Shown: positions 17,369 to 21,561, counted from the first letter of the stretch. The stretch is DNA of 32,000 nt from Candidatus Iainarchaeum sp. (GCA_037441475.1 JBBISB010000001.1:186418-218417); one strand, 5' to 3'. Numbers and translations: made by a program. The notes: a model not told the origin generated them from the sequence alone.

Positions 17369-19051
17369 ATGAAAAGATTAAATCAAAAAGGTGCATCTGA
17401 GGTTTTAAGCTATATTTTAGTTATATTTATTGTGATTGTGGTTGTTGGACTTATTGTGTCTGGAGTTATGCCTGCAATTGAAAGAACAAAATCTCAAAAG
17501 AAATTTCAAGAAGCAAAAATGTATATTTCAGAAATTGAAAAAAAAGTAAATGAGCTTATGCAGAGTCCAATAGGATCTATTACCTCTATTACTTTAGACT
17601 TAGATGAAATCTTTTTAGAAATAGATTCTAATCTTCAGACAATTAAAATGGTTCAAACTATTTATGGGGATTATTATAAGGAAGGGGATTTAATAAAGGA
17701 AGGAAATATTTATACCTTTAGAGAGATGCAAAAATTAATTGTGGGTCTTGATTTAATTGGTATTGAGATTATTGATAATTTTTATTTAACAAACTCAAAG
17801 ACAACTGTTTATATTAAAAAGATTGATAGAAACAAAATAAGTTTTTTAAGAGAGATTGATTCTTCTGAAAATGTAACTTTACAAAATACAGAAAAAGAAA
17901 GACCAAAAATTCCAACTGTTGAAAATCCAATCTTTGAACCTATTGAAGGAATTTATGATGATAATGTAACGATCACTCTTTCCACAACAACAGCTGATTC
18001 AAACATAAGATATACCTTAGATGGAAGTGATCCTTCTGCAAAAAATGGAATTTTATATACAGGTTCATTTAGTTTAACAGAAACAAAAACAGTCAAAGCC
18101 ATAGCCTATAAAACAGGTTGGTTAAATAGTAGTATAGTTGCTTCAACATATACTATAAATATTCCATTAAGATTTATATCTACATGGAAAACAGATAACA
18201 CAAGCACAGGTTCAAGTTCAAATAACCAGGTAAAGCTACCATTAGTTAATGGTGGTACTTATGATTTTAATGTAGACTGGGGAGATGGCACCCCACAGGA
18301 CAGAATAACTGTATGGAATCAAGCCCATGCAACACATACCTATTCAAGCATAGGTACCTATACCATAAGAATAGTAGGCACCATAAATGGTTTTAGATTT
18401 AATAATACAGGAGATAGATTAAAACTTTTAGAAATATCAAAATTTGGTCCTTTAAGACTTGGAAATGCTGGTTATTATTTTTATGGAGCTTCAAATCTTA
18501 CCATAACAGCAACAGATGTTCTTGATTTGAATGGAACAACAAATTTATCAGAGATGTTTCGTGATTGTTCTTCACTTACAACCGTTCCATCTATGAATAG
18601 CTGGGATGTTTCAAACGTAACGAATATGAATGGAACGTTTTATTCTGTAACTAATTTCAACCAACCAATCGGTTCCTGGAATGTTTCAAATGTAACGAAT
18701 ATGCAGAGTATGTTTTATGGTGCAACTAATTTCAACCAACCAATCGGTTCTTGGAATGTTTCAAATGTAACGAATATGCAGAGTATGTTTTATGGTGCAA
18801 CTAATTTCAACCAACCAATCGGTTCTTGGAATGTTTCAAATGTAACAAATATGACTAGTATGTTTTTAAATAAAACTTTAACCACCCAAAATTATGATAA
18901 TCTATTAATAGGTTGGGCTCCTCAAAGCCTAAAAACAGAAGTTAGCTTCCATGCTGGAAGCAGTAAGTATAGTGCTGGAGACGCTGCAACTGCAAAAGCA
19001 ACAATAATTAGTAAGGGCTGGACAATAACAGATGGTGGACAGGAATCATAA
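17369..19051 (+). CDS. Pilin-like surface adhesin: class III signal peptide + CHB_HEX_C-like domain + DUF285/BspA-type leucine-rich repeats
   Basis: N-terminus MKRLNQKG|ASEVLSYILVIFIVIVVVGLIV (archaeal prepilin-type). FEPIEGIYDDNVTITLSTTTADSNIRYTLDGSDPS...KAIAYKTGW is Fn3-associated/CHB_HEX_C-like. FISTWKTDN...VDWGDG...HTY is followed by repeated FNQPIGSWNVSNVTNMQSMFYGATN units and a GWTITDGG end. Confidence 0.7.
   Translation: MKRLNQKGASEVLSYILVIFIVIVVVGLIVSGVMPAIERTKSQKKFQEAKMYISEIEKKVNELMQSPIGSITSITLDLDEIFLEIDSNLQTIKMVQTIYGDYYKEGDLIKEGNIYTFREMQKLIVGLDLIGIEIIDNFYLTNSKTTVYIKKIDRNKISFLREIDSSENVTLQNTEKERPKIPTVENPIFEPIEGIYDDNVTITLSTTTADSNIRYTLDGSDPSAKNGILYTGSFSLTETKTVKAIAYKTGWLNSSIVASTYTINIPLRFISTWKTDNTSTGSSSNNQVKLPLVNGGTYDFNVDWGDGTPQDRITVWNQAHATHTYSSIGTYTIRIVGTINGFRFNNTGDRLKLLEISKFGPLRLGNAGYYFYGASNLTITATDVLDLNGTTNLSEMFRDCSSLTTVPSMNSWDVSNVTNMNGTFYSVTNFNQPIGSWNVSNVTNMQSMFYGATNFNQPIGSWNVSNVTNMQSMFYGATNFNQPIGSWNVSNVTNMTSMFLNKTLTTQNYDNLLIGWAPQSLKTEVSFHAGSSKYSAGDAATAKATIISKGWTITDGGQES
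18651..18850 (+). repeat. 75-bp tandem repeat, 2 near-identical full copies plus a partial third (coding, DUF285 repeat units)
   Basis: The unit is ctaatttcaaccaaccaatcggttcYtggaatgtttcaaatgtaacgaatatgcagagtatgttttatggtgcaa. Copies lie at 18651-18725 and 18726-18800 with a single c/t difference. A third copy starts at 18801 and diverges after about 18846. A degenerate copy lies upstream from about 18576. Confidence 0.9.
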
Positions 19052-19087
19052 TTTTATTGACAAAAATAGAAATTATTAAATATATTT

Positions 19088-19615
19088 ATGAAAACAGAAA
19101 AAGGAGCAGCAAATTTAATATCATACTTTCTTTATATATTTGTAAGTATAGTTGTACTTTCAACTATTATTTATATGGTTCAAGAAACCATGCAAAGTAA
19201 TGAAGAAAAATATCAGTTTGATGAAATGATAAAAAATATAACCATTGTATCAACAACTATTGAAAATGTTACTCAATCAAGATTTTCTTCCAGGGAAGTT
19301 ACTGTTTTTAACCCAGATGTTCTAGAGATTGATTGTAACCAAAATCAGATAAGGGGAGAGATTATCTATAACCTTAATTTTAGAACAGATATACCTGTTG
19401 TTGTTAATGATATTGAAATTTCAAAAGTATCAAATAGACTTTATTTTGTAAAAGAGATTTATGATTTAAATCAAGGAGTTAATATTGATTGTAATCTTGT
19501 TAACTTGAATAAAGGGAAAACAAGATATATATTTAGATATCAAGAGTATGATCTTGAAAATAAAAAAATAATACTTAATATTGAATTATTAGATTTTAAT
19601 AGAAGTGAAGAATAA
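19088..19615 (+). CDS. Pilin-like protein with class III signal peptide
   Basis: N-terminus MKTEKG|AANLISYFLYIFVSIVVLSTIIY. 175 aa. Its stop overlaps the next start (TAATG). Confidence 0.6.
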   Translation: MKTEKGAANLISYFLYIFVSIVVLSTIIYMVQETMQSNEEKYQFDEMIKNITIVSTTIENVTQSRFSSREVTVFNPDVLEIDCNQNQIRGEIIYNLNFRTDIPVVVNDIEISKVSNRLYFVKEIYDLNQGVNIDCNLVNLNKGKTRYIFRYQEYDLENKKIILNIELLDFNRSEE

Positions 19616-20682: not shown

Positions 20683-20763
20683 TCAAATAATTATGGTGCA
20701 ACAGGATTAAGAATAGATTCAGGAGATACAATTGTTCCGACACTAATAGATTCATTTACAGAC

Positions 20764-21561
20764 TTGGATACAATATCATCTAATGGATATTTTGCATTAG
20801 CAATTAGAAATGGAGAACTATATGCATGGGGAAGAAATGATTATGGACAATTAGGTTTTGAAGATACAAATAATAGAAGTGAACCTACAAAAGTAGGATT
20901 ATTTACAGACTGGGAAAAGGTATCTGCATCAGGGCATCATTCATTAGGAATTAGAAACGGAAGATTATATTCATGGGGTAGAAATATATATGGAGCAACA
21001 GGTCTTGGATTAGATACAGGTAATACATTAACCCCTACACAAATAGGCGCTTTTACAGATTGGAATTTTGTTTCAGGAAATGCAAATTTTTCATTAGCAA
21101 TTAGAAATGGACAACTTTATACATGGGGAAGAAATGATTATGGACAATTAGGTTTTTCAGATACAAATAATAGAACCAATCCAACTCAAGTTGGAACTGC
21201 ACAAGATTGGAATTTAGCACTTGCAGGGGGATTTAATTCTTTAGGATTAAGAAATGGAACACTTTATGCATGGGGAAGAAATAACTATGGGGTAACTGGA
21301 TTGAATACTACATCTGGAAACCCATTAACACCTACACAAGTAGGGTCATTTACTGATTGGCAAATTGTCGCACGAGATAATGCAAACTCATTAGGAATTA
21401 GAAATGGAAGACTTTATTCATGGGGAAGAAATGACTACGGCGTAACTGGACTAGGAATTTCCTCTGGTAACACATTGACTCCTACACAATTTGGAACTGC
21501 AGAAGATTGGGTAGATATTACTTTGGGAACTACATTCTCAATAGCAATTAAAAATAGTTAA
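20764..21561 (+). CDS. RCC1-repeat beta-propeller protein; probably the C-terminal part of the 19615 gene
   Basis: Five and a half repeats of about 50 aa of LY[AST]WGRN[DNI]YG[QAV][LT]G...P[TK][QK][VI]G...W...SL[AG]IRNG. It is in the same frame as 19615-20682, and the frame is open from 20683. The whole ORF has no ATG (only a TTG at 20764) and no signal peptide. Confidence 0.7.
   Translation: MDTISSNGYFALAIRNGELYAWGRNDYGQLGFEDTNNRSEPTKVGLFTDWEKVSASGHHSLGIRNGRLYSWGRNIYGATGLGLDTGNTLTPTQIGAFTDWNFVSGNANFSLAIRNGQLYTWGRNDYGQLGFSDTNNRTNPTQVGTAQDWNLALAGGFNSLGLRNGTLYAWGRNNYGVTGLNTTSGNPLTPTQVGSFTDWQIVARDNANSLGIRNGRLYSWGRNDYGVTGLGISSGNTLTPTQFGTAEDWVDITLGTTFSIAIKNS

Follow-up and report, generated by a model that had tools for sequence, protein, structure and literature searches.

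A trio of predicted archaeal modular pilin-like proteins with exchangeable candidate adhesin modules in Candidatus Iainarchaeum

Three consecutive same-strand genes in a 32,000-nucleotide (nt) stretch of DNA from Candidatus Iainarchaeum sp. (GCA_037441475.1, JBBISB010000001.1:186418-218417; hereafter the window, with positions counted from its first nucleotide) encode, as judged from their sequences and predicted structures, archaeal class III pilin-like proteins. We propose that these paralogous proteins, numbered 1 to 3 in gene order, are archaeal type IV pilin-like 'modular pilins' that would form a heterotrimeric pilus-tip cap or initiation complex presenting swappable binding modules, a reading to which we assign a probability of roughly 0.55. 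A life attached to host cells is assumed for DPANN archaea, and few of the molecules with which they recognize these hosts have been described. A preliminary description of the window had reported an operon of three prepilin-type proteins, each fused to adhesin modules, as a candidate host-attachment apparatus; here we examine this locus, its relatives and the alternatives to that view.

Results

Class III-like leaders and a shared pilin-like module

The open reading frames (ORFs) and leaders of the three genes were recovered as the preliminary description had reported them (Table 1). By ORF translation, the proteins begin with MKRLNQKG↓ASEVLSYILVIFIVIVVVGLIV (gene 1), MKTEKG↓AANLISYFLYIFVSIVVLSTII (gene 2) and MLFKRDKKG↓AVSLFTGIAVLFVSIIFLGIF (gene 3), the arrow marking the end of the leader, and all three show the short basic [KR]-[GA] leader with about 20 hydrophobic residues next that characterizes archaeal pilin-like proteins. 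A simple rule standing in for FlaFind, which asks for [KR][GA] among the first 18 residues and an uncharged hydrophobic stretch next, was applied to all ORFs of the 32 kb with all of their starts. Apart from the three genes, it matched only one start, internal to the ORF of a DoxX-like membrane protein; the confinement of the pattern to three adjacent genes indicates that the cluster is not a product of chance or composition. The bacterial prepilin N-methylation motif (IPR012902, G↓F/M-x-x-x-E) was also tested and was absent from the three leaders (KG↓ASE, KG↓AAN and KG↓AVS), so the trio does not belong to the bacterial pilin family.

The approximately 170-amino-acid (aa) N-terminal regions of the three proteins align with one another at about 25% identity and share a common pattern of leader, helix, second amphipathic stretch and beta strands. 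In the AlphaFold2 model of gene 1, a helix (residues 6-64) and a beta domain (residues 71-161) are predicted with a local confidence score (pLDDT) of about 90-97, mostly >90; the model of gene 2, made with an alignment of relatives, has a helix at residues 3-61 followed by about 10 beta strands, with a mean pLDDT of 82. Both predicted structures display the 'lollipop' arrangement of an extended N-terminal helix and a beta-sandwich head. Cys83 and Cys135 are invariant among the gene 2 orthologs, a pair that fits an extracellular protein. A FlaF/FlaG-like archaellum stator was considered for these proteins and rejected, because no archaellum genes lie nearby and no such hidden Markov model (HMM) matches were obtained.

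The gene order agrees with the preliminary description in that genes 1 and 2 are separated by a 36-nt spacer (19052-19087), and the stop of gene 2 and the start of gene 3 overlap in TAATG (19613-19617), an arrangement suggestive of coupled expression of these two genes in roughly stoichiometric amounts. The gene for an HD-domain protein follows the trio by 11-30 nt in every relative, including the metagenome-assembled genome (MAG) L014, and may be co-transcribed with it. In closer relatives, an 87-aa gene comes after the HD gene.

Table 1. Coordinates of the pilin-like trio, its modules and associated genes in the window
Feature	Position	Strand	Remarks
Gene 1, modular pilin-like	17369-19051	+	560-aa ORF
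Gene 1 leader MKRLNQKG	17369-17392	+	
Gene 1 pilin module, aa 1-165	17369-17863	+	
CHB_HEX_C_1 / Fn3_assoc Ig-like domain, gene 1 aa 193-261	17945-18151	+	Pfam and AlphaFold2
DUF285 / PARCEL 25-26-residue repeat (BspA-like) module, gene 1 aa 391-510	18539-18898	+	
Gene 2, bare pilin-like module	19088-19615	+	175-aa ORF
Gene 2 leader MKTEKG	19088-19105	+	
Gene 3 as encoded	19615-20682	+	355-aa ORF
Gene 3 leader MLFKRDKKG	19615-19641	+	
Gene 3 pilin module, aa 1-170	19615-20124	+	
Gene 3 Ig/PKD-like domain 1	about 20140-20400	+	
Gene 3 Ig/PKD-like domain 2	about 20401-20661	+	
RCC1 beta-propeller coding sequence, gene 3 frame	20662-21561	+	Pfam; six blades in the window
In-frame TGA	20680-20682	+	Inside RCC1 blade 1; ends gene 3
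HD-domain protein, 187 aa	21573-22136	+	Pfam HD, E=4e-7; 11 nt downstream of the RCC1 stop
A24 (prepilin / FlaK / PibD-type) aspartic peptidase, 282 aa	28615-29463	-	Pfam Peptidase_A24

A conserved trio with swapped cargo

The closest named relatives of the window are Candidatus Forterrea multitransposorum (complete genome CP045477.1), 'Ca. ainarchaeum' and Diapherotrites MAGs; Forterrea is a predicted host-dependent Diapherotrite with many large extracellular proteins (Probst and Banfield, PMC5905446). A comparison across relatives, which the preliminary description had proposed as a check, showed the trio to be conserved and its cargo to be replaced. In all relatives, the trio is located between RuBisCO and the gene for the 187-aa HD-domain protein. 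Gene 2 measures 173-177 aa in every relative, and genes 1 and 3 take several forms. Gene 1 is bare in most relatives (180-186 aa), carries CHB_HEX_C and DUF285 in the window (560 aa) and Ig-like and LamG domains in Forterrea (802 aa), and reaches 1420 aa, with CHB_HEX_C, LamG and others, in L021. For gene 3, the forms range from a bare protein in L014 (169 aa) through one Ig domain in L004 (258 aa) and two in the window (355 aa) to proteins with LamG and Gly_rich_2 in the Forterrea clade (1102, 1190 and 1284 aa) and, together with others, in L021 (>3354 aa). Since all three pilins are bare in L014 (169-186 aa), the comparison of these sequences makes it likely that the bare trio is the core and that the adhesin modules are add-ons.

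Every fusion junction in gene 1 lies just past the same ..(K/R)ERP motif, at the place where the short orthologs (180-186 aa) end. The Ig-like domain of gene 3 of the window occurs on gene 1 in Forterrea, and DUF285, located on gene 1 here, is found on a gene 3-type pilin in P0052; these placements indicate that modules move between paralogs.

The identity between the window and Forterrea is 91% for RuBisCO, 84% for HSP20, 82% for a PD-(D/E)XK nuclease, 75% for the HD protein and 59-63% for the three pilin modules, and the cargo shows none save for the one shared Ig-like domain. Within the Forterrea clade, the pilin module of gene 3 is under purifying selection, with a ratio of non-synonymous to synonymous substitution rates (dN/dS) of 0-0.03 against 0.13-0.39 for the adjoining cargo, and the middle of the gene 3 cargo differs by insertions and deletions of whole modules. 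These alignments show that close relatives have replaced the cargo wholesale and retained the pilin modules, which supports the adhesion idea, and a constant scaffold with fast modular cargo is the pattern that would be expected of an exposed recognition device or of host-specificity determinants.

A previously unannotated family

A family profile built from 16 relatives and searched against 1.84 billion cluster representatives returned 152 clusters at E<=1e-3, of which 57 have E<=1e-10. In all of them, the pilin module is at the extreme N terminus, and the family lengths are bimodal, at about 160-180 aa or 250-1650 aa. The preliminary description had named, as findings that would count against it, unrecognizable class III leaders or orthologs lacking the pilin-like helix. 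Neither was encountered: the [KR]-[GA] leader and hydrophobic N terminus are kept in every ortholog, and the class III rule is passed by at least 137 of the 164 family members, most of the others being visibly truncated or failing solely on the strict filter. The position counts come from the 109 members that satisfied a stricter form of the rule applied earlier. In these, Lys (101) or Arg (8) stands at -2 and Gly (81), Ala (20) or Ser (8) at -1, and the median leader has 6 residues. Leaders of the type ..KRGQ↓VWVETV.. occur in five distant members (P0121, P0125, P0133, P0138 and P0182); their Glu near position +5 resembles E5 of bacterial type IV pilins and is unlike the usual archaeal pattern.

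No member of the family reaches a curated pilin model at threshold, and the sub-threshold matches that recur all point to pilin N-terminal families. DUF7289 was matched by 17 of 48 (best 1e-9) and Pilin_N by 4 of 48, with further matches in relatives to GspG, arch_flag_Nterm (4/48), ComGC, UpsB and ComGD. The commonest cargo among the 33 long members is Laminin_G_3 (23), followed by DUF2341 (17) and CHB_HEX_C_1 (8), and the remainder comprises DUF285, Gly_rich_2, Fibrinogen_C, NHL and PKD. All of the sources that name these proteins label them 'hypothetical'. By these profile matches, the pilin module defines a previously unannotated family. A metagenome scan gave at least one locus among the matches listed. 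In the more distant lineage of L019 (1-9289), a bare family member (160 aa) adjoins a toxin-antitoxin pair, with giant surface proteins upstream (>5156 aa and 762 aa, Ig-like; 425 aa, LamG), and no ATPase or platform gene was found nearby in L019.

Binding modules of genes 1 and 3

The preliminary description had assigned an adhesin to each protein, which applies to genes 1 and 3. Both combine a pilin module, a linker and an independently folding module, as modular pilins do; gene 2, for which Pfam gave no domain match, has no grafted module. In gene 1, the modules lie C-terminal of a flexible linker (aa 166-186, ending in ..EKERP..). The AlphaFold2 model drops to a pLDDT of <50 at aa 165-177 and recovers to 93-97 over aa 180-265, which form a separate Ig-like CHB_HEX_C domain; beyond aa 269, the model is poor. 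The CHB_HEX_C-like domain and the DUF285/BspA repeats that had been recognized previously all scored above Pfam cut-offs: CHB_HEX_C_1 (aa 193-258) and Fn3_assoc reached 57.2 and 59.2 bits (cut-offs 22 and 23), and DUF285 (PF03382) reached 142.7 bits (cut-off 25). Together with the PARCEL repeat TIGR02167 of NCBIfam (80.2 bits, cut-off 30), the DUF285 match, also above its curated cut-off, places gene 1 among the DUF285/PARCEL surface proteins. These near-identical repeats are encoded by a 75-nt tandem DNA repeat at 18601-18866 (3.5 copies, 92% matches; Tandem Repeats Finder), which is a likely place for variation in copy number or for an assembly error. Gene 1 aa 272-338 (18182-18382) also gave a weak NCBIfam match (E=1.5e-7) to PamR, an RbmA-like protein from a pilus system described recently in the candidate phyla radiation (CPR); at 30.6 bits against a cut-off of 300, it probably reflects a generic Ig/FnIII-like fold and was rejected as a sign of kinship to PamR.

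In gene 3, the two Ig/PKD-like repeats are 36% identical to one another (E=1e-16). Residues 277-345 match PKD at 23.5 bits, exactly at the Pfam cut-off, and bacterial PKD-repeat proteins match both repeats, covering about 48% of the protein. DUF2341, the mark of PilY1/DUF2341-type tip adhesins, was not found by Pfam in any of the three window proteins.

An RCC1 propeller cut off by an in-frame stop

The two Ig/PKD-like domains of gene 3 and the in-frame RCC1 sequence downstream are present as the preliminary description held, but the propeller is severed from the gene by a TGA, and the final 5-6 codons of gene 3 already belong to RCC1 blade 1. The RCC1 sequence matches PF00415 in 5 stretches (165 bits) and WD40_RLD at 181 bits (cut-off 150). 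At the stop, the frame reads ..NPYLIYSW(stop)SNNYGATGL.., compared with LYSWGRNIYGATGL in the later blades, so that the TGA occupies the conserved Gly position of the WG(R)N blade motif, one base from GGA. The same TGA is present in the National Center for Biotechnology Information (NCBI) record used for comparison (GCA_964526055.1, contig CAZGHU010000001.1, from about 186,418, the source of the contig positions quoted below) and in an independent Logan assembly of SRR11582162, that is, in three assemblies in all, and the public annotation splits the sequence into gene 3, of 355 aa, and an RCC1 fragment of 86 aa. No uninterrupted closed seven-blade propeller was found, given the TGA in blade 1, the six blades of the window and a 100-N scaffold gap in the RCC1 array of the NCBI record (window 20781-21434; L001 12089-12189). 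This gap is flanked by an extra partial blade (..GQLGFEDTNNR-gap-RNGQLYTWGRNDYGQLGFSDTNNR..); the true blade number is probably seven or eight, and the six-blade version of the window may be a collapsed assembly.

The module is similar, at 35-48% identity, to thousands of RCC1 proteins secreted by bacteria. Bacterial homologs that stand alone usually measure about 365-390 aa, and the bacterial protein P0007 has the same order of Ig repeats followed by RCC1. None of the 33 long family members carries RCC1, and no intact pilin-RCC1 protein is known. The simplest reading of these sequences is a recent nonsense mutation in a former pilin-Ig-Ig-RCC1 fusion. Three other accounts of the stop were rejected. 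The propeller sequence has no plausible start of its own: translation from TTG 20764 as a separate gene would give a protein with no signal peptide and without blade 1, whose first strand precedes the stop. Decoding of UGA as glycine (genetic code 25) conflicts with the archaeal context, and the standard code is indicated because TGA also terminates several other window genes and the long conserved ones are of full length. A recoding RNA element, or selenocysteine, finds no backing in Rfam, whose matches in the window are limited to four tRNAs.

A second, independent stop was observed in gene 3 of a Forterrea-clade population, where TAA (L008 8502-8504, also in L009 and L010; three samples from the Joint Genome Institute (JGI)) stands in place of GAA in L003. 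Both stops are at module boundaries, and their products resemble natural short forms of relatives (258 and 169 aa). They may simply reflect tolerated truncations. It could also be speculated that boundary stops act as a switch for the outermost adhesin, through either low-level read-through, giving rare adhesin-tipped subunits, or recurrent selectable on/off nonsense mutations; we consider this improbable. The read-through extensions of viral coat proteins would be a parallel for such rare gene 3 subunits; the stops themselves are followed by bases (TGA-T here, TAA-A in L008) that are not known to favour read-through. If such a switch were real, it would, together with the cassette-like swapping of lectin, Ig, leucine-rich-repeat and propeller modules on a constant trio, constitute a system for host-range diversification in DPANN archaea.

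The A24 peptidase and other genes of the window

The A24 peptidase that had been proposed to match the trio scored 44.1 bits with Pfam Peptidase_A24 (cut-off 26.5, E=3e-11) and carries both catalytic Asp motifs, AYTDYKTG and GGGDVKL, the second in the GxGD form of a cognate prepilin peptidase. It is presumed to be the processing enzyme for the three leaders. An 840-aa ATPase at 1266-3788 (+) was considered as a pilus ATPase and rejected, being DUF87/HerA-like with an intein and not T2SSE. The intein, which has a LAGLIDADG domain, splits this P-loop ATPase directly after the Walker A lysine (..GKRGGGK↓CVTGD...IIIHN↓SYT.., arrows at the intein boundaries). For Ca. Forterrea multitransposorum, a 'secretion-related ATPase' has been mentioned (PMC5905446).

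The window has about 29% G+C and is archaeal in content, with form III-type RuBisCO, SRP54, an archaeosine/queuine-type tRNA-guanine transglycosylase, an 'archaeal phage integrase' and the intein-bearing ATPase. A bacterial promoter scan gave 41 sites against 35 expected, which is uninformative for an archaeon. The 'archaeal phage integrase' gene (13883-14812, -) abuts tRNA-Thr (14771-14842, -) and has beside it a methyltransferase and a cluster of small ORFs low in GC (23-25%); this region (11000-14842) may be an integrated element, and the only direct repeat found there, at 14 nt, is at chance level. A 733-aa secreted 'Beta_propel' protein (415 bits; 8455-10656, +) is followed by a 255-aa protein without matches (10764-11531, +) that is kept at the same place in Forterrea-clade loci; both may be further surface proteins near the trio.

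Discussion

We propose the following scheme for the trio. Each precursor would be made with a class III signal peptide and inserted via the signal recognition particle and Sec, after which the A24 peptidase would cut the leader after K-G, leaving a mature protein with its hydrophobic N-terminal helix and a small beta-sandwich head of the Ig-like type. From the heads and helices of all three proteins, a heterotrimeric cap or initiation complex might then form and be incorporated into a type IV pilus. The genes for the ATPase, platform and major pilin of this pilus would lie at other sites in the genome. Gene 2 would be the constant bare subunit, and genes 1 and 3 would be modular pilins with binding modules grafted past the pilin module through a flexible linker, gene 3 having formerly borne an RCC1 propeller that a G-to-T nonsense change would have cut off. 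The modules displayed at the tip may bind the surface of a host or partner cell, and their exchange between lineages would proceed by recombination. A complex of this kind is favoured over a major-pilin role because of the overlap of genes 2 and 3, the constant presence of one copy of each paralog and the size of the cargo.

The closest functional parallel in design is found in bacteria. In Streptococcus sanguinis, PilA, PilB and PilC are modular minor pilins with vWA and concanavalin-A-like lectin modules, and modular pilins are widespread in bacteria (Raynaud et al. 2021, PMC8179133). As in the trio, the three S. sanguinis minor pilins comprise one small protein and two with a bulky binding module joined by a short linker, the lectin module belongs to the superfamily of the Laminin_G_3 domain of the long relatives, and tip location and direct adhesion have been proposed. 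They differ from the trio in having the G↓F/M-x-x-x-E motif, an alpha/beta-roll head, a vWA module and a pil locus with an ATPase, whereas the proteins described here have an archaeal K-G↓A/V leader, an Ig-like sandwich head, CHB_HEX_C, PARCEL, PKD and (RCC1) as cargo, and an operon apart from any machinery. GspI/J/K, and FimU-PilVWX with PilY1, are likewise co-encoded low-abundance pilin-like proteins that prime and cap a filament, one of which carries or holds a large adhesin; they share no sequence or detected fold similarity with the trio and differ in subunit number and head-domain chemistry, and the complex of the trio is a prediction.

In archaeal pilus loci, DUF2341 'PilY-like' and Ig-rich adhesin-like proteins occur as separate proteins (Makarova, Koonin and Albers 2016, PMC4858521; preprint 10.64898/2026.04.22.720090), and DUF2341 proteins have been proposed as archaeal pilus-tip adhesins (PMC4858521). 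The clade 1/Epd system resembles the trio in pairing archaeal class III proteins with large adhesin-like proteins; system 1 has been reported in some DPANN, and the pairing of DUF2341 with a LamG-type domain is the commonest in the cargo of the pilin-module family (17 of 33 long members). The adhesins of the clade 1/Epd system are separate proteins, however, and its locus contains an ATPase, two TadC genes and EppA, whereas the trio is a stand-alone cassette of fused modules. Given these bacterial and archaeal precedents, the preliminary description overstated its case in calling pilin-anchored adhesins an uncharacterized way of holding on to a host. The principle is already established in bacteria, and what appears to be new, on the sequence comparisons made here, is a DPANN-specific family of archaeal modular pilins organized as a stand-alone trio with swappable cargo.

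Several observations weigh against our proposal. Neither a PilB/FlaI-type ATPase or PilC/TadC platform, whose absence beside the trio had been noted previously, nor a small major pilin was found in the window or at positions 177,005-227,509 of the 671,531-bp contig, a search that reached 10 kb past each window end, and no ATPase or platform gene stands beside the trio in any relative examined. The three window proteins do not reach any curated pilin model of Pfam or NCBIfam at cut-off, including PF07790 Pilin_N and TIGR02537, their best scores being 17 bits for DUF7289 (cut-off 27) and 15 bits for GspG; Foldseek against the Protein Data Bank (PDB) returned generic Ig-like sandwiches and no solved pilin or archaellin, and a profile search of PDB sequences gave nothing relevant. 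The >3000-aa cargo of some relatives fits hardly anything other than a tip position or a membrane anchor, and the RCC1 module is outside the gene 3 product unless the TGA is read through. The result for the ATPase and platform genes and the size of the cargo lend themselves to the chief rival, in which the trio would be class III surface proteins that do not enter a long pilus and are held in the membrane by their helices or assembled into a short pseudopilus-like stub, in the manner of the Sulfolobus bindosome. There, no long filament is built, and the prepilin-type signal serves to position a binding protein on the cell surface. Class III signal peptides are known on archaeal non-pilin surface proteins (PMC4858521). 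The bindosome subunits, however, are solute-binding proteins that share only the signal peptide; Pfam finds no substrate-binding-protein domain in the window proteins, and the head of about 110 residues conserved in three paralogs and 152 clusters exceeds what an anchor needs. Moreover, the bare gene 2 product and the three bare proteins of L014 would have nothing to display. We therefore regard such an arrangement as possible but rather unlikely.

The lack of a curated model or of a solved structural counterpart could also be explained if the N termini were ordinary type II or uncleaved signal anchors, with the K-G incidental and the A24 peptidase serving other substrates, and AT-rich genomes are Lys-rich, so that K-G near a start is not rare. 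This explanation has little probability in our view, as the motif and very short leader persist across the family, the pattern is confined to adjacent genes in the window, the recurrent weak HMM matches point to pilin N-terminal families, and the gene 3 pilin module has a dN/dS close to zero. The in-frame TGA and the independent TAA of another population raise the further question of whether the locus is decaying, gene 3 being a pseudogene and the cassette functionless in this lineage. Each case has a single stop, however, followed by 292 (here) or 1020 (L008) intact codons, and the boundary positions of the stops leave whole proteins, of either the pilin or the pilin-plus-Ig type. With genes 1 and 2 undamaged and a post-stop dN/dS in L008 (0.13-0.39) no higher than that between intact alleles (0.25-0.37), decay seems to us quite unlikely. 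Our preferred reading remains that of a tip or initiation complex of modular pilins.

The proposed role has precedents in other ultrasmall, host-dependent cells. Episymbiotic Saccharibacteria use type IV pili to find and bind their hosts, a function that has been shown genetically (PMC9894109, PMC11623550); these pili are bacterial and built of canonical pilins, whereas the role of the archaeal locus is a prediction. In groundwater, pili connect ultrasmall cells to hosts (PMC7906910). DPANN pilins are commonly not annotated (PMC9563170), and the family profile obtained here can be used to annotate pilins in other DPANN genomes. The locus itself supplies concrete candidates for host recognition in DPANN archaea.

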